DNA of 64,000 nucleotides from an uncultured Candidatus Binatia bacterium (GTDB lineage: Bacteria > Desulfobacterota > Binatia > UBA9968 > JAJDTQ01): contig OZ251459.1 in the NCBI GenBank assembly GCA_965242525.1, positions 3,392,001 through 3,456,000 of the forward strand. The letters run 5' to 3'. The stretch's first letter is position 1; the number at the start of each line of letters is the position of its first letter. A program made the position numbers and the translations under genes. Below are positions 16,887 through 63,301 of the stretch, piece by piece. Below the pieces are notes generated by a model, which saw nothing but the letters and a program-made list of their open reading frames with translations, did no database searches and was not told the origin of the DNA.

Positions 16887-17008
16887 GGGGAATCGAAAAG
16901 CGCGTCCTTCGACTTCGCTACGCTACGCTCAGGACGAACGGGGGACGTTGTTCGGAATTGCCCCCCGTTCGTAATTTCCCCCGATCGTAAATCCTCGATC
17001 CCCGATGC

Positions 17009-24857: not shown

Positions 24858-26018
24858 ATGGAGATGAACATCGCCAGAAAACAGGGGGCCCAGTTAGCGC
24901 TATGGGCAGATGACCCTGGCGCCGAGGTCCCGGAGTATCTGTCGCGCCAGTTGATCACCTACATCGGCAACAAGCGCGCCCTGCTCGGACACATCGCCGC
25001 AGCGGTCGAACAGGTCAAGCAGCGTCTTGGAAAGACACGTCTCCGGATATTCGACGCCTTCAGCGGCTCCGGGGTGGTCTCCCGATATTTCAAGGCGCAT
25101 GCCGCCCTGCTGATCAGCAACGACATCGAAGAATACGCCGCCGCAACCGCACGCTGTTACCTGAGCAACAGGAGCGGAGTTGACCTTGAGGCGGTAACCG
25201 AGGCCGCCGCCGACCTGAACCAAAGGGTGGATACCGAGAAGTTTCCAACGGGCTTCATCGAAGAATTGTACTCGCCCAAAGACGAAAAGCGCATCACCAG
25301 GGAGGACCGCGTCTTCTACACGAAGAGCAACGCACAGCGGCTGGACAACTACCGCCGCCTCATAGACACACTACCGGCTGAAATGCAGGATATGCTCCTT
25401 GGGCCTCTGCTCAGCAGCGCGTCCGTTCACGCCAACACAGCAGGGGTCTTCAAGGGCTTCTACAAGAACCGAGAGACCCGGATCGGCCAATTCGGTGGCA
25501 GCGGAGCTGATGCCCTGGTTCGTATCACAGGAAAAATCAGGCTCGAAGCGCCCGTGCTCAGCAACTTCGAGTGTGACTATCAAGTGCTGCAAGAGGACGC
25601 CAACGCCGTTGCGCCTCGCCTGAAGGATCTCGACCTTGCATACATAGACCCGCCCTATAATCAACATCCCTACGGATCGAACTATTTCATGCTCAACCTG
25701 CTCCTGCGATACCAATGTCCCCGGCGCGTCAGCCAGGTTTCCGGAATACCGACCGACTGGCAGCGCTCCGGGTACAACGTGAAAGCCAGATCCCTTCCTC
25801 TCCTGAAAGATCTTCTCGGAAAGCTCGATGCGCGGTTTCTTCTCATATCGTTCAACAACGAAGGCTTTATTCCCACTCACCAGATGAGCGCGATGTTGTC
25901 CGAGTTGGGTTCCCTGGACGTCATAGAGACGCCGTACAACGCTTTCCGTGGCAGCCGGAACCTCAACAACCGTCCCGTCCATGTCACCGAACAGCTATTT
26001 CTGGTGGAACGGAGGTAA
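24858..26018 (+). CDS. N6-adenine DNA methyltransferase (D12/alpha class), with no intact REase adjacent
   Basis: 'YIGNKR', motif I 'DAFSGSG', 'ISNDIE', motif IV 'YIDPPY', 'SFNNEG'. Confidence 0.92.
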   Translation: MEMNIARKQGAQLALWADDPGAEVPEYLSRQLITYIGNKRALLGHIAAAVEQVKQRLGKTRLRIFDAFSGSGVVSRYFKAHAALLISNDIEEYAAATARCYLSNRSGVDLEAVTEAAADLNQRVDTEKFPTGFIEELYSPKDEKRITREDRVFYTKSNAQRLDNYRRLIDTLPAEMQDMLLGPLLSSASVHANTAGVFKGFYKNRETRIGQFGGSGADALVRITGKIRLEAPVLSNFECDYQVLQEDANAVAPRLKDLDLAYIDPPYNQHPYGSNYFMLNLLLRYQCPRRVSQVSGIPTDWQRSGYNVKARSLPLLKDLLGKLDARFLLISFNNEGFIPTHQMSAMLSELGSLDVIETPYNAFRGSRNLNNRPVHVTEQLFLVERR

Positions 26019-26237
26019 CGTCGGTTGGCACGAAAGCATCCATTAGGCGAGCAGCGCGTTACGCTGACCGAACGGTTCCCCACACTGGACGTCAGCGTGA
26101 CCTGGGCGCGCACGCTGCCAAGGCAGATGGCGCGTGAGACCGCCCGCATCGGCCAAGGCGATGCGCCGATCCTGCGGGAACTCGGTCGATCCTTCCGCAA
26201 CCGGGAACCACGCCGGGATGTACAGGTGACCAGCAGC

Positions 26238-26407
26238 TTGGGCAGCGTCGGGGTGAGTTGCCCGGCCGTCCAGGAGCCTGCACCGCGCGAAGACGAGCAA
26301 CGTAGCTGACGGCAACGAGGGTCGTCTGTTCCCCGGCGAACTTGATGCTTGCCGGGGCAGGGTCCGTACTGATAGATTACGCGCTTCGACGATGGTGAGG
26401 GAAGGAC
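26238..26407 (+). repeat. msrA 3' end plus downstream region, copy 2
   Basis: Encodes 'LGSVGVSCPAVQEPAPREDEQRS*' versus the msrA end '[23 protein letters not shown]'. Confidence 0.9.
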
Positions 26408-26519
26408 GGCGCTTCAGGAATTCGTGTGGGTGTCCTTACCAAAGTAAGGAGATGGCGAGACAGGCACGAACCCATCGAGATTTGCCTGTTTGACGTGGAT
26501 TCTCGCCACAAGGGACGAC

Positions 26520-28142
26520 ATGATGGACAAAACGATAGCCACATCTCTTGCCGATGCGCTTCAGTCCGTTCTTGCACCTAGGCCGGGAGAAGTGCGCGAA
26601 CGCGAGATTTTGCGAGTCGCAGCGACCCTCGGTGGAGACAATAGCGAACAAAATGCCGAGAAGGCACGGAAAGAAGTCCTCAAGTGGGCGCAGAAGCGAG
26701 TGGGCGACCGCTTGCCGGAAACCGCCTGGAAGTACGATGAGTTCGAGAAGCACATGGGCGGGCGCGATTGCAAGGCCGTCCGTATCGCCAGTGAAGCCAC
26801 AGACTTGTGGGCAATTCGAGCTAATGATCCCGACAAGAACATTGCACAGAGGGTTTGGACAACGGAGGTCGTCATTGGCTTCGCAAGAGCGCAAAAAACA
26901 CCTATCGGCTTCGGACTTCGTTTGCTCGTAAGCTCACCCGAAGCAGATTTGCAGAGCGTGGAGCGAGCCGTCCCCGGATTGGTGTGGCAGTTGGCGAACG
27001 AATGCGGGCTTTATCAGGGAGCCAGACAGTTGTCCCCTGAACCGTGGATCGTCGAATCGCGTGAAGACATGCTTCGCCTGATTGGTGTCCTCCTTGATCC
27101 TTTGCGTAGAGAGCCTGTTTTTGTTCTGAGTATCCCAAGAGACGCGACTGACCTGCATGCGCCTCTCATAGACCCCGGGCCTTTAGCACGTGCGATGCTC
27201 GGGCTTGCCAAGGTCGTAGTACTACCCGCCCGATCCACTTGGGCTTTGACGGATCAACTGGGCAAGCGACTATCTGTGTTTAATGGCGCGGTTCGAGCGT
27301 ATTTGCCCGGATTTACCGAAGACGCTGAACCATACGACCACGACCTTTTCCTTCAAGAGCACCTGTTGAATCCAGCGAAGGTCCACCAAGTGTCCGTCGC
27401 TCTGCGGCAGATGGCGGCTGCAGAAAGCCTGCGGAGGCTTCGTTTGGGCCAGGACGTATTGTCCTTCTCCAGGGTGCAGGCGCATAGCGTCGCAATTTCG
27501 AGCGCTCGCCTTGAGCATACCGAAAACAAGCTGATTACGGAAATCGAAAACCTTAGAGAATCTCTGAAGAAGTCGGAAGACGAACAGGAGTGGTTCGCTG
27601 AACAACATGACCGTGCAGAGAAGATGGCAAAAGATTTACAGCACAAATTGAGTCATGCCAATCTTCGTATTCAACAGCTCACAGAGCAACTGGCGACTCA
27701 TGACGACAAGCCTGATTCCAATCTTTCGCTCCCGGACACATGGGAAGATTTCTCGGAATGGTGTGATACTCACTTGGACGGCCGGGTGCAGTTGTCGTCG
27801 CGCGCTCGTCGGGAAGTCAAAGCACCGTTGTTCGAAGATATCGGAATGGCAGCCCGATGTCTGCTCTGGCTTGCCAACGATTATCGCCAAGGGCGCCTGG
27901 AGAGCAACACCTCCGATCCTCGGGGTTCGATTGAAGGCGGATTGAAGAACGAGCGTTGCGGCGCCGATCAATTCAAGTTCAACTGGCAGGGAAAACAGAT
28001 CGACGTCGTGTGGCACATCAAGAACGGTGGCAACACACGAGATCCGGCACGTTGCCTTCGCATTTATTATTTTTGGGACGACGGGAACCAGCGAGTCGTG
28101 ATAGCCTCCATGCCGGCTCACATCCCCACTGACGCGACGTGA
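26520..28142 (+). CDS. Hypothetical multidomain protein: N-terminal domain, coiled coil, C-terminal RelE/ParE-like domain (putative defence protein)
   Basis: AT-richer than the flanks; heptad region 'LITEIENLRESLKK...LQHKLSHANLRIQQL'; C-terminus 'WHIKNGG...CLRIYYFWDD..QRVVIASMPAH'. The domain call is tentative. Confidence 0.65.
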   Translation: MMDKTIATSLADALQSVLAPRPGEVREREILRVAATLGGDNSEQNAEKARKEVLKWAQKRVGDRLPETAWKYDEFEKHMGGRDCKAVRIASEATDLWAIRANDPDKNIAQRVWTTEVVIGFARAQKTPIGFGLRLLVSSPEADLQSVERAVPGLVWQLANECGLYQGARQLSPEPWIVESREDMLRLIGVLLDPLRREPVFVLSIPRDATDLHAPLIDPGPLARAMLGLAKVVVLPARSTWALTDQLGKRLSVFNGAVRAYLPGFTEDAEPYDHDLFLQEHLLNPAKVHQVSVALRQMAAAESLRRLRLGQDVLSFSRVQAHSVAISSARLEHTENKLITEIENLRESLKKSEDEQEWFAEQHDRAEKMAKDLQHKLSHANLRIQQLTEQLATHDDKPDSNLSLPDTWEDFSEWCDTHLDGRVQLSSRARREVKAPLFEDIGMAARCLLWLANDYRQGRLESNTSDPRGSIEGGLKNERCGADQFKFNWQGKQIDVVWHIKNGGNTRDPARCLRIYYFWDDGNQRVVIASMPAHIPTDAT

Positions 28143-28369
28143 AAGCCGTCCCATAACCGACAGTCACCACGCTGGTGCTTACTACGTAATGATTGTGCAA
28201 AGGAAGGCTCTTCAGTTCCACGGAAATGATGCCGGCGGTACCCATTCGCACCTTCGGGGCCATGAGTTCATTCCGTGGAGGTCTTGGACCGTGAAAGAAC
28301 ATCGAACCAAGGTAACGTATGCCAAACTCTCCGTAGAGAGGATCCGTACCCTGGAATGGGAGGCATTAT

Positions 28370-29356
28370 CTACTCGATCTTCTCGTTGGTTTCTGTCTCT
28401 GCCTGGCTTGGATCCTTACGTTTGGAAGCAACAGATTTTTCGAGTTTTTCTTCCAGGTCGGCCATTCTCTCCTGTAAGGTTTCAACCTCTCTTTTTAGTC
28501 CAATAACACGCTCGGCCGTCGTTGCCTGTTTTGCTGTCATGTCACCTGTGATATTGCTGACATTCAGCACGATAGTAGCGATACCCACTGCTACAGTCAC
28601 GGATATAGTAACTGCACCACCAATGGTGTAGTTCCGCGAACGCTTAGCGCTCCTTGCTGCTTGTTCAGCGCTTTCCCTTGATTCACGTAGTGCCCTGGGA
28701 ATGGAGCTTCGGATTTCAGGTTGCTTAAGATAAGTATCAAGTGTTTTTCTATTTTTGTCCTTCGGAAAAGGTGTGTATATGCCCTGGTAGGATTCTGTTG
28801 AACGATTGATGTTTACCCAATGGTCGTTAGGAGAAATTTTCGTAAACTCTAGCCATATCAATTTTTCTTCGTAGCAGAATTTGTATTTGTTGGTAGTGAG
28901 ATTATGCAACGGAATCAGAATGCGACCTTTGAACCCCGGGTCAACAATGGGTCCCGTACCGAGAAGCAATCCCCGATGGACATTTGTAATTGTGAGATTG
29001 AACCTTACCGCCATATAGTCCGGAAGGCGAAACTTTTCTCTGGTCGTGACGAAGGCAATCGAATTCGGTTCCAAAACAAAAGAACCTTTTTTACTCAGGT
29101 CAACGGACTGCTTCTTCCCGTCATCCTCCCAATAGATACAATCTGCCCCCACGCTTGCCTCGTATGAGGCCGGTTTGAGCTTCTCCGAATCGAAAGGATA
29201 GATCATCCCCGTAGTACGGACATAGTCGTAGATGTCGGCGGAATTGAGCAACGCCGCCGGAATATTCGGGAACGGATCACGCGACTTGTACTCGTTGAAC
29301 CGAGCCCCCGCGTCATCGTCATCGCGTAGGGGATACCGTTCTTGCTGAGTCGTCAT
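28370..29356 (-). CDS. dCTP deaminase/dUTPase-fold protein with degenerate deaminase site, C-terminal TM helix and coiled coil
   Basis: 'LLNSADI', 'LKPASYE', 'FVLEPNSIAFVTTREKFRLPDY', 'IVDPGFKGRILIPLHN'; hydrophobic 'IGGAVTISVTVAVGIATIVL'. Confidence 0.8.
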   Translation of the reverse strand: MTTQQERYPLRDDDDAGARFNEYKSRDPFPNIPAALLNSADIYDYVRTTGMIYPFDSEKLKPASYEASVGADCIYWEDDGKKQSVDLSKKGSFVLEPNSIAFVTTREKFRLPDYMAVRFNLTITNVHRGLLLGTGPIVDPGFKGRILIPLHNLTTNKYKFCYEEKLIWLEFTKISPNDHWVNINRSTESYQGIYTPFPKDKNRKTLDTYLKQPEIRSSIPRALRESRESAEQAARSAKRSRNYTIGGAVTISVTVAVGIATIVLNVSNITGDMTAKQATTAERVIGLKREVETLQERMADLEEKLEKSVASKRKDPSQAETETNEKIE

Positions 29357-29360
29357 GAGG

Positions 29361-30410
29361 CTACCGCGTGGCTACCGCGTGCGCGATGTGCTCTTGTCTT
29401 GGATACAAGGACTTGGACCCCGGTCCGACCCCCACCCAATCCACGGATACGCCGATGGACTGCTCGACCGCTTTGACGAACTCCTCCGCCTTGTCCGTGA
29501 CTCGTTCCTCTTCCCGGCAGCGCCAATCCACGTAATCGAGATGGTTGAGGACCACCCGGCTAGGCGAGTTCGCCTGGATCGCCTGCAGCACGACCTCGGC
29601 GTCGAACCTTGCGACTCGACGGATTCGTCGGGTCACACTGGTCTTCTCCACTATGCGCCCATCGGCACCCGACTCCCGGGCCACGGTGTTCCAGTCCATT
29701 TCCCGCGGAAGCGGGCCGGAGTTTCCCGACACCCGTATGGGGAAGGCCCGGAGCACCAGGATCACATCGTCCACGTCGAGAGGACTCAGGCCGACCTCCG
29801 AAAGGAACCCTGCGGCCGTGGTGTCACGTGACGTCACGTGTGGATAATGATCCGAATGAAGCAGGGACAAACCAAAGCCCTGGGTCCCTTCGACGATCAC
29901 CCGGCGGTTCTGCTGCAAGCAACGCCGCGCCATTTCCCTGACAGGCTGGAGGTAGGGTTGCAACCGTGGGTCGTCCGCGGCCCTCTTCGACCGGCCTTGG
30001 CGCTCTATGCGCCGTATGACCGCGCCGCCGGTACCGGTCAGGGTGGAGCCGATGAGAGATCCCAACCCTGCCTTCCGCTCCCTTTCCCTGTCTTCCTCGG
30101 TAATCACGAAGGCGTTCGGGTCCACGCTCACTCGGTCACATGCGAGGGAGGGGTTGCTCAGTTCCTCCAGGAAGACCTCCACGTCGATGTAGGAGCCGGC
30201 CCCTATGGCGCAGTGGATTCCGGGGATGAGGCAGGCGGTGGGCAGGCAGCGGAAGACGTGGCGTCGCCCGTCTTCGACCACCGTGTGGCCGGAGTTGGGG
30301 CCTCCGGTTCGGATGGCAACGGCCGCTTTTAGCTGTCCGGCCAGGAAGTGGGCGACCTTGCCCTTCCCCTCCGAGCCGTACTGACCGCCGACCACGATGG
30401 AAACCGGCAT
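29361..30410 (-). CDS. Adenylosuccinate-synthetase homologue with PurZ/PurZ0-type signature (candidate 2-amino-dAMP-succinate synthetase)
   Basis: 'GGQYGSEGKGK' (Ser for the PurA Asp), 'GGPNSGHT', 'IGSTLTG', 'EGTQGFGL', 'TSRD', 'FPIRVSGNSG', 'EKTSVTRRIRRV', 'NHLD', 'GVGP'; short archaeal/phage-type length of 349 aa. Confidence 0.85.
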   Translation of the reverse strand: MPVSIVVGGQYGSEGKGKVAHFLAGQLKAAVAIRTGGPNSGHTVVEDGRRHVFRCLPTACLIPGIHCAIGAGSYIDVEVFLEELSNPSLACDRVSVDPNAFVITEEDRERERKAGLGSLIGSTLTGTGGAVIRRIERQGRSKRAADDPRLQPYLQPVREMARRCLQQNRRVIVEGTQGFGLSLLHSDHYPHVTSRDTTAAGFLSEVGLSPLDVDDVILVLRAFPIRVSGNSGPLPREMDWNTVARESGADGRIVEKTSVTRRIRRVARFDAEVVLQAIQANSPSRVVLNHLDYVDWRCREEERVTDKAEEFVKAVEQSIGVSVDWVGVGPGSKSLYPRQEHIAHAVATR

Positions 30411-30420
30411 GGCAGGACCT

Positions 30421-32511
30421 TTACACGAAGTTCAGTCGATGCTCAAGGCGTTCCAGCACTTCGGCACAGAGGTCGTCCTTGGTGCGGTCGTTTGCCGCCC
30501 GGACGTGCGCGAGTTCGCCGAGCATGGCGACGCCCCGTTCCGAGAGGTGTCGGAGGGACTGCTCCCGACCGGAGCCCTTTGCGGACGCCTTCGCGGGCGA
30601 AGGCCCGTCCTGCCTTCCATCCTCACGGGTCAGGTGCACGTGGACGAAGGCCGGACCGTAGGTCTCGACCAGGAAGGCATGGTCTTCGGGGAAGCGGAGT
30701 CCGTCGATGACGACGCTGCCCTCCGAGGGCAAACGCTCCTTCAACCGGCGGCAGAGCCAGCGCTGTCCGGGGGCCTCGTGGATCTGCGCCCCCAGGTCCT
30801 GGAGCGCCTTTTGGCTTACGGGACGCCCGTCCTTCCGCAGTTCGTCTTCGAGCACTTGGCTGAACCTTCCGTAGGCGTAGCCCCGGCTTTCCAGGAAACG
30901 GGCAACGGTGGTCTTGCCGGCGCCAGTCTCGCCGCTCAAACCCGCCACGCGCCGGTCCAGCCAGTCCCCGGGCTGGCGGGCAAGGTCCGGCACGATGAGG
31001 TATTCTTCCTCGTCGTTGCCCAGGGCCTCGAACTTTCCCGTCCAGAAGAACAGGCCCACCAGGGCGGACGTGATGGCGTCTAGTTCGTCGTGGGACAGCT
31101 TGTCCGAAGCGATGGGTCCGCGGACCCCGAAATCGAGCAGGGCCCGGGTCAGGTGCTCCAGGCCCTTCTTCTTCCGGGGGATCCCCAGGATGTCCTGGGC
31201 GGCGCCGGGGTAGCTTTCGATGACCGGGATGCCGAGCTTCCGAAAGTGCGTCGCCAGACGGATGCCCCGGGCGGTGAGGCCCTGCATGTTCAGGATCAGC
31301 GTGGGATAGACGTGGACGCCCCGCGCCCGGAGCAGTCGCTCGCATTCCCGGGTGATGCCGAACTCCTCCCTGGCCGGGTCGTCGTCGGTGGTGCGGGTGC
31401 GCCCGTACGGCAGGGACAGGGGGGAGTCGATGGACACCATGTGCGGCCGGGCGCAGACGGTCTCGCTGATGAGGTCCAGGTCGCTGCCGATGCGCTGCGT
31501 CAGGGCGTAGTCGTCCGTGAGCAGGCACCACCCGGAGGCCCGGGCCTCCGACCCGGTCAGGTCGATGCCCACCACGCGCAGCGGCCGTTCGCGCACGGCC
31601 CCGGTCAACTGCCCGTAGGTGGTGCGGGGACCCTTCGCGCCCCGGTAGGGCGGCACGTAGATCCGATGCCCGGCCTCGGCCTTTCGGCTGGCGGCCCATG
31701 CCAGCCTCCGGGGTTTGGCCAGGAACCGGGGCGGCGGCGTGCGGAGGACTTCGGCCACCCCGTCCGCGGCCTTGCGCCGGATGGCCTCGTCCAGGATCGC
31801 CTGCATGCCCACGATGTCCGCATGGTTGTATTCGATGAGGGTCTTGCAGGCCGCGTCGTCTCCCATCTGGTACTGGTACCAGAGCACCGGGGCCATGGCC
31901 CCGTCCACGTCGGCCACATGGCTTCGCCCCTCCACGCGGATGGACCGCTCGATGGCCTTCTGGTTGCCCACCAACCCCACGGACCGGCCGAAGAACCGCA
32001 GGTCCACGTGGGCCTCGGGGAGCTTCACGTCGGGGAACTCCCGCTCCATGAACTTGGTGTCGAACACCGAGCCGTTGAAGGTCACCAGGCAGGCGGCCCG
32101 GGACAGCAGGCGGGCCAGCGCCGCCTTGCTGCCGCCCCGGACGTGGCAGTAGTACTCGTCGGCCAGGCCGACGCCCACGATGGTGACGTAATCGTAGTAG
32201 ATGCTCAGGCCGGTGGTCTCCACGTCCAGGAACGCGGTGGACCGGGGCAGGGTCAGGGCGATGCGGTAATGCTCCCGCCGGGGCAGCCGACGGGCGAAGA
32301 AGTCCATGTCCCCCCGGGCCAGGGCGGCGCGGGATTCGGCCAGTTCGGACAGCAGGGCCGGGACCGACCCGGCCTCCCGGGGCCAGGGAAAGCCTGCCTG
32401 GGGGAAAGAGGCGCGTTCGAGGTCGTCCCAGGTGCGTATCCCCTGTTCCCAGAGCGCCCGCTCCTTCCTGGCCCCGATCCCCGGTAGGTGGATGAACGTG
32501 GATTCCAGCAC
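30421..32511 (-). CDS. Fusion protein: HhH + DEDD/RNase_H_2 (YprB-like) exonuclease + DUF429 RNase H-like nuclease + P-loop NMP-kinase-like domain
   Basis: 'HLPGIGARKE'; 'FLDVETTGL...TFNGSVFD...HVDL...YNHAD'; 'VGIDL...SIDSPL...RECE...IESYPGA...HDELDA'; 'GLSGETGAGKTT...VVIDGLRFPED'. Confidence 0.85.
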   Translation of the reverse strand: MLESTFIHLPGIGARKERALWEQGIRTWDDLERASFPQAGFPWPREAGSVPALLSELAESRAALARGDMDFFARRLPRREHYRIALTLPRSTAFLDVETTGLSIYYDYVTIVGVGLADEYYCHVRGGSKAALARLLSRAACLVTFNGSVFDTKFMEREFPDVKLPEAHVDLRFFGRSVGLVGNQKAIERSIRVEGRSHVADVDGAMAPVLWYQYQMGDDAACKTLIEYNHADIVGMQAILDEAIRRKAADGVAEVLRTPPPRFLAKPRRLAWAASRKAEAGHRIYVPPYRGAKGPRTTYGQLTGAVRERPLRVVGIDLTGSEARASGWCLLTDDYALTQRIGSDLDLISETVCARPHMVSIDSPLSLPYGRTRTTDDDPAREEFGITRECERLLRARGVHVYPTLILNMQGLTARGIRLATHFRKLGIPVIESYPGAAQDILGIPRKKKGLEHLTRALLDFGVRGPIASDKLSHDELDAITSALVGLFFWTGKFEALGNDEEEYLIVPDLARQPGDWLDRRVAGLSGETGAGKTTVARFLESRGYAYGRFSQVLEDELRKDGRPVSQKALQDLGAQIHEAPGQRWLCRRLKERLPSEGSVVIDGLRFPEDHAFLVETYGPAFVHVHLTREDGRQDGPSPAKASAKGSGREQSLRHLSERGVAMLGELAHVRAANDRTKDDLCAEVLERLEHRLNFV

Positions 32512-32528: not shown

Positions 32529-33053
32529 CTATTCCTTCAGGAGGCGTTGTATCTCGCTCTCCATCTCCGCGTAGCCCCCCTCGCCGAAACGGGTGTAACG
32601 GACCACGCCGCCCTTATCGACGATGTGCAGCGTGGGCCAGTAGCGGGTGCCGTAGCGTTTCCAGGTGGCGAAGTCGTTGTCCAGCGCCACCGGAAACTCC
32701 ACGCCCAGCCGCTTGCAAGCCTTCCGGACCTTGTCCGGGTCGTGTTCCCAGGCGAACTCCGGCGAGTGGATGCCCACCACCAGGAAGCCCTGGGGTCCAT
32801 ATTTCTCGTGCCAGCCCGCCAACTGCGGGATCGTGTTGGTGCAGTTGATTCAGCCGTAGGTCCAGAACTCGATGAGGACCACCTTCCCCCGCAGGTCCTT
32901 CAGGCGCAACGGCTCCGAGTTGATCCACGTCTCGTTGGTGAACTCCGGCGCCTCCTTGCCCAGCAGGGAGGCCCCGGCCCCGCCGGCAGCCGCCAGCGCC
33001 AGGAACCCCGCAAGGGCCGCAAGCGCGAGTATCCGCATCCCGGATTGCTTCAT
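32529..33053 (-). CDS. Exported thioredoxin/redoxin (DipZ-C-like), predicted selenoprotein with UxxC
   Basis: Track ORFs 32850..33053 and 32529..32822 are in one frame: 'LIEFWTYG-TGA-INCTNTIPQL...GIHSPEF...DNDF..W...YWP'. The TGA sits at the first Cys of CxxC. Confidence 0.88.
32815..32829 (-). promoter_or_regulatory. Candidate bacterial SECIS apical hairpin
   Basis: mRNA CCCGC-AGUUG-GCGGG begins 20 nt 3' of the UGA, with GU at the 5' side of the loop. Confidence 0.6.
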
Positions 33054-36597: not shown

Positions 36598-36738
36598 AGC
36601 GCCGCCCGCTCCGCGAACGGGGGACACGAGGGACTACAACTATCCCCCGTTCGTCCTGAGCGTAGCGTAGCGAAGTCGAAGGACGCGCTTTCCCATAGGG
36701 AGAAGGAAATCAGGAGAGCCGAGCCGCAAGGAGCCGCG

Positions 36739-63066: not shown

Positions 63067-63301
63067 GGGAACCGGGGCAGGGAGGCATGAGCGCGTCCTT
63101 CGACTCCGCTTCGCTACGCTCAGGACGAACGGAGATACGGGGATATGAAAGGTCTTGGAGCAGGCGCCAATCGACAGGAAGGGAACCGGGGGGAAGGACC
63201 TGTAACAGGGGCGGCTACCGCGCTATCATGGCGAAACTCTGAACAATTACCCCGTTCGTCCTGAGCGTAGCGTAGCGAAGTCGAAGGACGCGCTTGTCTC
63301 T

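Follow-up and report, generated by a model that had tools for sequence, protein, structure and literature searches.

A chromosomal gene on a 64,000-nucleotide (nt) stretch of DNA from an uncultured Candidatus Binatia bacterium (assembly GCA_965242525.1, contig OZ251459.1, positions 3,392,001-3,456,000; the whole stretch is referred to here as the window) was found to encode a short ligase of the adenylosuccinate synthetase (PurA) family, which represents a separate branch of the same serine-type radiation as the phage enzymes PurZ and PurZ0. Phage PurZ-type enzymes take part in making 2-aminoadenine (Z), an unusual DNA base. An initial annotation of the gene had described it as a PurA paralogue with PurZ/PurZ0 specificity residues; the main finding beyond that description is the gene's place in a conserved, mobile cassette of several genes. 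With moderate confidence, the enzyme is regarded as a GTP-dependent ligase joining aspartate to (deoxy)guanosine monophosphate, (d)GMP, and as the central component of a hitherto undescribed cassette that converts deoxynucleotides and is probably antiviral. The gene and its diagnostic motifs are as follows (window coordinates; aa, amino acids).

29361-30410, minus strand: PurZ-like (Ser13-type) short ligase of the adenylosuccinate synthetase family, 349 aa (PF00709, PHROG 1211, trees)
30357-30389, minus strand: P-loop GGQYGSEGKGK (residues 8-18), with the Ser13 codon at 30372-30374 replacing the catalytic Asp13 of PurA
29706-29744, minus strand: FPIRVSGNSGPLP loop (residues 223-235), canonical PurA counterpart TTRVG-SGPFP; also present in PurZ0 and PurZ
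29601-29648, minus strand: aspartate-loop region EKTSVTRRIRRVARFD (residues 255-270), canonical PurA counterpart EFGATTGRPRRCGWFD; its T-x-V-T..RR pattern agrees with PurZ0 and PurZ and differs from canonical PurA
29535-29546, minus strand: NHLD (residues 289-292, within VLNHLDYVD, 287-295), counterpart of the (N/T)KxD guanine-specificity motif

The open reading frame (ORF) contains no internal stops, and its translation matches PF00709 (Adenylsucc_synt) with an E-value of 1.7e-50 and 172.4 bits. All four motifs on which the initial annotation was based were located in it, and they are conserved in a family of 73 members. The family was sampled from 80 related loci on one-genome-per-species contigs; it comprises the window and the 72 loci with a full-length homologue, the 8 partial homologues having been dropped. 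Position 13 is occupied by Ser in 63 members, by Gly in 10 and by Asp in none. I225-R226-V227, S231-G232, R264-R265 and N289-H290 were present in 73/73 members, T257, T260, R264 and R265 of the aspartate loop are conserved across the family, and His42, Gln177, Lys16 and the Arg residues are retained. S40, found in 71/73 members, gives NSGHT here versus NAGHT in every other group compared.

The canonical PurA motifs cited in the initial annotation are valid for this organism, since the genome's own canonical PurA (sequence L001) shows GDEGKGK, TTRVGSGPFP, GATTGRPRR and TKLD. That enzyme is encoded by a separate canonical purA (G000:C1:1808535-1809791, 607.9 bits), which confirms that the gene in the window is a paralogue; purB is also present in the genome (512 bits). 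The substitutions attributed to PurZ-type enzymes were likewise recovered in ten PurZ/PurZ0 sequences from GenBank phage records (Archimedes, Ghobes, Immaculata, PermaG, Keanu, vB_BpsS-140, VP2, pB23, ZP6 and S-2L): Ser at the Asp13 position together with PIRV in 10/10, and Thr at the position of the canonical Gly in G-x-TTG in 9/10. In PMC12884076, Asp13 is given as 99% conserved in canonical PurA, and Ser as present in all 147 phage PurZ-group sequences.

The guanine-specifying Asp, D292 of NHLD, is indeed kept, being invariant in the 51/51 aligned family rows of a separate alignment. ATP-type phage PurZ has lost it, with NF(A/C)(Q/N) aligned to NHLD of the window, whereas PurZ0-type enzymes keep the Asp (TMLD, SMAD). 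One element of the initial annotation had to be given up. The Arg retained where ATP-type PurZ has Leu corresponds to R262, which is variable among the 73 members (R 23, K 18, T 16, S 5, N 3, A 2 and others). Because this position varies freely in the family, the Arg/Leu difference was discarded as a specificity marker and given no weight.

A HMMER search of 1.84 billion representatives clustered at 50% identity yielded 8860 hits at E ≤ 1e-3, 3281 at ≤ 1e-10 and 760 at ≤ 1e-30. Among the best 150 representatives the Asp13 position was Ser in 129, Gly in 5, Asp in 3 and Leu in 1, and it was missing in 12 (fragments); Ser-type enzymes thus form a very large group outside phages. FastTree analysis of 212 rows (21 of 233 had been dropped as fragments), rooted on the genome's own canonical PurA, placed two Asp-type sequences basally, followed by a Ser/Gly clade of 208 rows. 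A 109-row clade (support 94) contains all 73 cassette-family rows, and PurZ0 and PurZ are found in a separate 40-row group.

The same layout was obtained with an IQ-TREE quick search (LG+C20+F+G4, posterior mean site frequencies) on 76 rows hand-picked from the 212. The Ser/Gly clade comprised 73 rows with support of 99 in the SH-aLRT test and no Asp-type members, so the protein does not cluster within canonical PurA. The clade also holds phage PurZ and PurZ0 and splits into an unresolved four-way fork consisting of kinase-fused enzymes (support 93), a PurZ0-holding group (92; core 100, 7 rows), a PurZ-holding group (87; core 100, 3 phage rows) and a 44-row clade (95) that includes the cassette family (27 rows, 96). 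The window protein lies in the 44-row clade, outside both the PurZ and the PurZ0 cores. By tree position it is neither canonical PurA nor PurZ nor PurZ0 proper. The description as PurZ0-like holds for the combination of Ser13 with a retained Asp, and it does not extend to membership of PurZ0, whose core (support 100) excludes the protein. Constraining the cassette clade and the PurZ0 core together gave a log-likelihood 7.93 units worse (p-AU 0.395, in a test weakened by the group having been named after the tree was seen), and a sister relation to PurZ0 is thus neither supported nor rejected.

Profile and structure searches gave the following ranking. The best NCBIfam model was the archaeal PurA equivalog NF003295 with 286 bits, and the curated PurA equivalog cut-offs were not reached (NF003295, 286 < 368; TIGR00184, 200.6 < 395.55; NF002223, 162.1 < 402 bits). 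Among solved structures, P. horikoshii PurA scored 193.8 bits (residues 1-340), 7VF6 157.9, phiVC8 PurZ 132 and S-2L PurZ 112.6, and the best phage family was PHROG 1211 (PurZ; 7.3e-77). PMC12884076 assigns the 7VF6 structure to PurZ0 from the Gordonia phage Archimedes; in that paper the "PurZ group" consists of 147 phage sequences and four archaeal Ser/Gly sequences, with prokaryotic PurA sampled at ≤2 per phylum.

Each of the known enzymes shares a different set of features with the protein. PurZ0 (7VF6), a GTP-dependent 2-aminoadenylosuccinate synthetase of actinophages, resembles it in Ser for Asp13, the FPIRVAGNSG loop, the TTVT..IRRV loop, the guanine-specifying Asp and the short archaeal-type architecture, and a dUTPase-superfamily gene is encoded nearby in both. 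It differs in sequence (35% identity over 84% of the query), in the NAGHT motif, in a 7-residue insert that the window protein has ahead of the T-S-V-T loop, and in its location in a phage genome together with DutZ, DmtZ and DpoZ-1; the window gene lies in a cassette of bacterial chromosomes and plasmids that has no Z-selective polymerase or DmtZ. PurZ (ATP/dATP-dependent; phages phiVC8, S-2L, SH-Ab 15497; NF038379) shares Ser13 and the PIRV loop, and all dGMP-pocket residues of S-2L PurZ listed in PMC8342488 are kept here except A50, which is replaced by S40. In contrast to PurZ with its NFxN/Q, the window protein keeps D292; it also lies outside the PurZ clade (100), and its gene has no DatZ/MazZ neighbours. 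The archaeal short PurA (P. horikoshii 2D7U/5K7X, NF003295) is closest in overall sequence, in length class and in its GTP motif with Asp, but it carries GDEGKGK, PTRVG-AGPFP and GTVTGRRRR, and Asp-type sequences fall outside the clade of the window protein (99).

The PurZ-like gene is the middle one of three same-strand genes. The stop of the first gene lies 10 nt ahead of the PurZ-like start, and the start of the third gene 4 nt past the PurZ-like stop.

30421-32511, minus strand: first cassette gene, 696 aa, with HhH, DEDDy 3'-5' exonuclease, DUF429 RNase-H-like and P-loop (d)NMP kinase domains (Pfam, AF2, Foldseek)
28370-29356, minus strand: third cassette gene, 328 aa, with a dUTPase/Dcd-fold domain (about residues 35-175; PF22769, 8e-11), a predicted transmembrane (TM) helix and a long coiled coil

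The only site found by a promoter and terminator scan of the cassette strand was one weak terminator-like site inside the first gene. Pfam matches of the fusion protein encoded by this gene comprised HhH, RNase_H_2 (PF13482, 1e-23), DUF429 (3.2e-5) and a P-loop kinase. In an alignment of 45 rows, residues of both nuclease sites were invariant or at least 90% conserved: D96/E98, D151 and Y228/D232, which make up the DEDDy signature of the exonuclease, and D317, D362 and D475/E476/D478 of the RNase-H-like site. The NMP-kinase-like motifs GKTT (532-535) and DGLR (603-606) were also conserved. At the sequence level, the fusion protein had no significant match in the PDB. With an AF2 model (pLDDT 88.9, pTM 0.85), Foldseek matched the kinase part to the adenylate-kinase-related Sulfolobus protein 3lw7 (with AMP; 1.9e-5) and to shikimate and adenylate kinases, and the exonuclease part to Rrp6, NrnC and PolB exonuclease domains; the DUF429 domain was left unresolved by this fold search. 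PHROG 139, a dNMP kinase family, matches the kinase part (2.6e-7).

The nearest solved relatives of the dUTPase-like protein are the archaeal dUTPases 8y1w (Thermococcus pacificus) and 9ln0 (P45). In an alignment of 52 homologues, R118 was invariant, D139 of the VDPGF motif was kept in at least 90%, and P149 was invariant where Dcd has its catalytic Glu. The gene product is therefore not a deaminase, and the candidate assignment as a true dCTP deaminase was rejected. The residues I-T align to the Ser-Ser phosphate motif of Dcd/Dut, which makes dUTPase-like catalysis uncertain. The AF2 model (pLDDT 85.8) shows a long helix at 248-313, and the TM helix and long helix are always present among the homologues. 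Compared with phage Archimedes, the partner here is Dcd-type and TM-anchored, with an hhalign probability of 62% to gp55 and no match to gp53. Prediction of a complex between the PurZ-like protein and residues 1-185 of the dUTPase-like protein gave a score of 0.00 against a mark of 0.32, which is no verdict either way.

ORF clustering across the 80 loci recovered the PurZ-like gene in 79, the fusion gene in 73, the dUTPase-like gene in 71 and all three in 66; several loci without the full trio stop at contig edges. A fourth gene for a deoxynucleoside kinase (PF01712, 9.7e-31) is present in 41/80 loci, with the four-gene set in 40/80, and is missing from the window. All 80 loci are bacterial and span 14 named phyla (Pseudomonadota 23, Thermodesulfobacteriota 18, Binatota 7, Bacillota 5 and others). 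Cultured hosts include Nitrosomonas, Nostoc, Methylobacterium, Lacibacter and a Sinorhizobium medicae plasmid. The three activities are further linked by a natural fusion of the PurZ-like and DCD parts (representative P0123, 644 aa) and by a separate Ser-type clade of about 500-560 aa with an N-terminal P-loop nucleotide kinase (P0181, P0186, P0202, P0212, P0248 and some 20 others).

Some loci show further variation. A family of 230-340 aa whose members start with MKNQYFGDINDYLKYG, matching no Pfam or PADLOC model, was seen near the PurZ-like gene in 11 loci: L021 (5177-5965), L058 (5209-6081), L061 (5213-5962) and L067 (4623-5312), all on the minus strand, and L008, L014, L016, L019, L023, L069 and L075. 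In the four Solirubrobacterales-type loci without the fusion gene, the gene of this family adjoins the PurZ-like gene in divergent orientation. In L008, L014 and L016 an IetA-like AAA ATPase takes the place of the dUTPase-like gene.

The cassette is accessory and has been acquired more than once. At E ≤ 1e-40, matches occurred in 8 of 123 genomes of the order, and in 6 of 27 other genomes of the genus, with 36-88% identity. The G+C content of the window dips to 0.54-0.57 at 24-30 kb versus about 0.68. Compared with the 88%-identical relative L004, the window contains about 2.3 kb extra (26044-28371) with the gene for HEC-07, and L004 keeps the D12-class methyltransferase gene beside the cassette; in the 81%-identical relative L005 the cassette lies on the opposite side of a redoxin gene. 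These differences indicate that the deacetylase-msrA interval is variable and that the cassette moves as a block. The conjugative plasmid pMl2 of Sinorhizobium medicae (L107, 2331-9063) carries the PurZ-like gene with an overlapping dUTPase-like/TM gene and no fusion gene. This pair sits in a small plasmid-borne conflict island, among an AbiEii-family toxin gene a few kb off, a Phd-type antitoxin gene and hypothetical genes.

The non-phage context noted in the initial annotation was confirmed. Neither the window nor the annotated loci showed phage structural or replication genes next to the cassette. In IMG/VR 13 loci matched, of which 3 reached at least 54% identity; these three have no partner genes, and their neighbours were uninformative. 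Two genes next to the cassette in the window, outside it, are of defence type.

26490-28142, plus strand: HEC-07 candidate defence protein (PADLOC PDLC04161, 1.4e-174)
24858-26018, plus strand: D12-class N6-adenine DNA methyltransferase (PF02086, 3.8e-18; PADLOC MTase_II, 5.2e-109)

Defence neighbours were counted with PADLOC models among the 261 nearest flanking ORFs (≤2 per side) of 74 loci, in batches at E ≤ 1e-8 (41 loci) and E ≤ 1e-12 (34 loci), with L047 in both. A defence family was found at 25/74 loci, namely 15/41 in the first batch, all of which pass 1e-12, and 10/34 in the second, an association counted with no matched control. The neighbours included restriction-modification (RM) types I, II and IIG, IetA-like proteins, BrxH/HmaA-type helicases, PLD-helicase, RmrA, AbiEii, mad and PDC. 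Left out of the count were a TnpB/Cas12f-like match (L006), a PolA-like match (L034), a weak LeoA match (L044) and the cassette's own inverted fusion gene (L026).

Two side observations concern the surroundings of the cassette. A TlpA/redoxin-like gene directly upstream (32529-33053, minus strand) has an in-frame TGA at the first Cys of CxxC (FWTYG-TGA-INC); read through the TGA it forms one 174-aa protein, and it is thus probably a selenocysteine redoxin. A 36-nt palindromic REP-like repeat, TTCGTCCTGAGCGTAGCG.AGCGAAGTCGAAGGACG, has 15 window sites at ≤3 mismatches versus 0 expected (for example 16903-16938, 36650-36685 and 63255-63290), none of them within the 24-33 kb island.

The reading of the enzyme as a (d)GMP ligase was based on characterised relatives and on one contrasting case. 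Here PurZ0 is treated as GTP-type and PurZ as ATP-type, an assignment which we take to be that of the primary source. PurZ0 is said, in a 2023 abstract by Tong et al., to have dGMP as its substrate. In PMC12884076 the ATP/GTP preferences of PurZ0 and PurZ are given in reverse relative to the source cited there. PMC12884076 and PMC8342488 name dGMP as the substrate of the characterised Asp-to-Ser enzymes PurZ and PurZ0.

The contrasting case is a cluster for a toyocamycin/sangivamycin-like 7-deazapurine nucleoside on the conjugative Rhizobium leguminosarum plasmid pRL23b2 (L108, 6375-14722), an arrangement also annotated on several further R. leguminosarum plasmids. Its genes encode FolE, a short PurA-like protein, PurB, QueE, an IMPDH/GMP-reductase-family protein, nitrile hydratase, QueC, a HAD hydrolase, a phosphoribosyltransferase and QueD. 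Its pathway presumably follows the logic of the Streptomyces toy cluster, and the IMPDH/GMP-reductase-family gene would take off the 2-amino group first. The PurA-like protein of this cluster is 35% identical, Asp-type and keeps all canonical motifs, a contrast that fits a rule of Asp for 2-H purines and Ser for 2-amino purines. As every characterised Asp-to-Ser enzyme uses dGMP, and given this contrast, (d)GMP is the substrate suggested for the window enzyme, and its intact guanine-type NTP motif points to GTP use.

In the favoured explanation, the substrate would be a guanine nucleotide, with dGMP the likeliest; its 6-oxo group would be activated by means of GTP and aspartate joined to the nucleotide, giving N6-succino-2-amino-(deoxy)adenylate. 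Host PurB could convert this succino product into a 2-aminoadenine (Z) nucleotide, which the kinase domain of the fusion protein could move onward. The fusion protein would contribute two intact nuclease sites (DEDDy and DUF429 RNase-H-like) and a (d)NMP kinase. The membrane-anchored dUTPase-like protein might act as a dNTP-to-dNMP pyrophosphatase or as a nucleotide-binding module. Upon infection, the deoxypurine pool (dGTP/dGMP) would be drained or rewritten to succinylated or Z nucleotides, and phage DNA synthesis would be poisoned or starved. An antiviral role is the most likely one for the cassette.

Nucleotide-depleting or nucleotide-altering defences include dCTP deaminase, dGTPase, viperins and Kongming. 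The cassette resembles them in having nucleotide-metabolism enzymes in defence islands, and the kinase domain of its fusion protein has a weak match to the corresponding domain in PADLOC's dCTPase model (2.1e-4); apart from this, only a weak domain match of the fusion protein to PDC-S44 (1.3e-6) was obtained with PADLOC. It differs from them in its domain set, which consists of the exonuclease, DUF429 and kinase fusion, the PurZ-like enzyme and the TM-anchored dUTPase-like protein. A Legionella survey of ADP-ribosyltransferases (PMC12522546) reports that adenylosuccinate synthetase domains neighbour a DarT-like family in 60% of cases and, in Pseudomonas aeruginosa, accompany AAA and NUDIX genes. 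Enzymes of the PurA type may recur in further conflict systems. A literature search turned up neither this cassette nor Ser-type homologues of PurA from bacteria; bacterial relatives may already be shown by Tong et al. 2023 and in Supplementary Fig. S8 of PMC12884076.

Several points weigh against the favoured explanation. Almost all S-2L pocket residues also occur in canonical PurA, so Ser13 is the sole clear discriminator, and S40, a base-pocket residue peculiar to the family, could point to another base. The protein scores 233.9 bits with the NCBIfam PurZ model NF038379, under its cut-off of 300; since it also lies outside the characterised PurZ and PurZ0 cores, transfer of the substrate by homology spans a deep split. 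Use of dGMP and dependence on GTP are inferred from residues and neighbours, and the deoxy preference only from the partners (dUTPase-like, dNMP-kinase-like and deoxynucleoside kinase). A model of pool depletion alone does not account for the membrane anchor, and the dUTPase-like domain may bind nucleotides without hydrolysing them. As regards defence, the neighbourhood count is an association and not a measured enrichment, 49/74 loci have no PADLOC defence neighbour among their ≤4 nearest flanking ORFs, and neither the PurZ-like nor the dUTPase-like protein is hit by any PADLOC model.

The membrane anchor would be explained by the main rival, a signal-and-effector system of abortive infection, which we judge unlikely. 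Here the PurZ-like enzyme, with help from the kinases, would make a rare succinylated or Z alarm (deoxy)nucleotide, an inactive dUTPase fold would sense it, and the trimeric coiled coil and TM helices of the sensor would damage the membrane. The minimal pair on plasmid pMl2, which has no fusion gene, and the P0123 fusion are consistent with such a system, as are the constant association of the dUTPase-like domain with a TM helix and a long helix, the Pro in place of the deaminase Glu and the missing Ser-Ser motif. Reuse of nucleotide-enzyme folds as sensors of odd dNTPs is known from the Kongming system. However, D139 and R118 are preserved and the nearest solved relatives are active dUTPases, and the many substrate-supplying enzymes (the exonuclease and two kinases) suit bulk conversion better than trace signalling.

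It is quite improbable that the cassette is cargo or a relic of a mobile element, such as a temperate phage or plasmid, which made Z-containing DNA for itself and not for host defence. In its favour, PHROG 1211 ranks first among phage families, the partnership with a gene of the dUTPase superfamily resembles that of PurZ0 with DutZ, which occur together in 98/98 PurZ0 phage genomes according to PMC12884076, the exonuclease and kinases could recycle host DNA, and the pair is present on a conjugative plasmid. Against this stand the viral matches, only 3/13 of which reach at least 54% identity, none with partner genes, and flanks made up of RM and other defence genes in place of phage structural or replication genes. 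The cassette contains no Z-selective polymerase gene, and its dUTPase-like gene shows only a remote relationship to gp55 of Archimedes and none to gp53. No DatZ was found in the genome with an S-2L query, in a search that had no positive control.

It is very doubtful that the enzyme is ToyG-like and tailors a modified purine nucleotide on the way to a nucleoside natural product. The Rhizobium plasmid cluster illustrates that short PurA-like genes serve such pathways, being recruited outside primary metabolism on a mobile replicon, and S40 could fit a modified base. The ToyG-like protein is nevertheless Asp-type with canonical motifs and is accompanied by PurB, FolE and QueC/D/E, whereas the window enzyme is Ser-type and is partnered by nucleases, kinases and a dUTPase-like protein. 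Deazapurine, sugar-tailoring, export and resistance genes are all missing from the cassette, neither its pair of nuclease domains nor a dUTPase-like protein anchored in the membrane suits biosynthesis, and a 3-4-gene format is fixed across 14 phyla.

An ordinary second adenylosuccinate synthetase, converting IMP to adenylosuccinate as a back-up or stress isozyme, is hardly credible: P. horikoshii PurA and the archaeal PurA model are the top matches (193.8 and 286 bits) and His42, Gln177, Lys16 and the Arg residues are kept, but every PurA equivalog cut-off is missed, Asp13 is absent in 73/73, a full canonical purA lies elsewhere in the genome, the distribution is patchy and the operon partners are unrelated to de novo AMP synthesis.

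The enzyme is probably a new branch of the PurZ-type radiation, and the widely spread cassette is probably new and of defence function. One branch of a large non-phage Ser-type clade has become fixed in a bacterial cassette together with nucleases, kinases and a dUTPase-like protein. We tentatively suggest that the cassette represents a chromosomal, horizontally traded PurZ-type pathway serving as an antiviral weapon or alarm, and that phage PurZ0 and PurZ with their dUTPase-type helper could be captured descendants of it. If so, host immunity would have been the original role of Z-DNA chemistry, which phages would later have turned into a counter-defence. If the enzyme acts on dGMP, bacteria themselves would be able to make Z-type or succinylated deoxynucleotides, a new nucleotide-based immunity or a new signalling nucleotide would be likely, and the origin of phage Z-genome biosynthesis would become directly testable.

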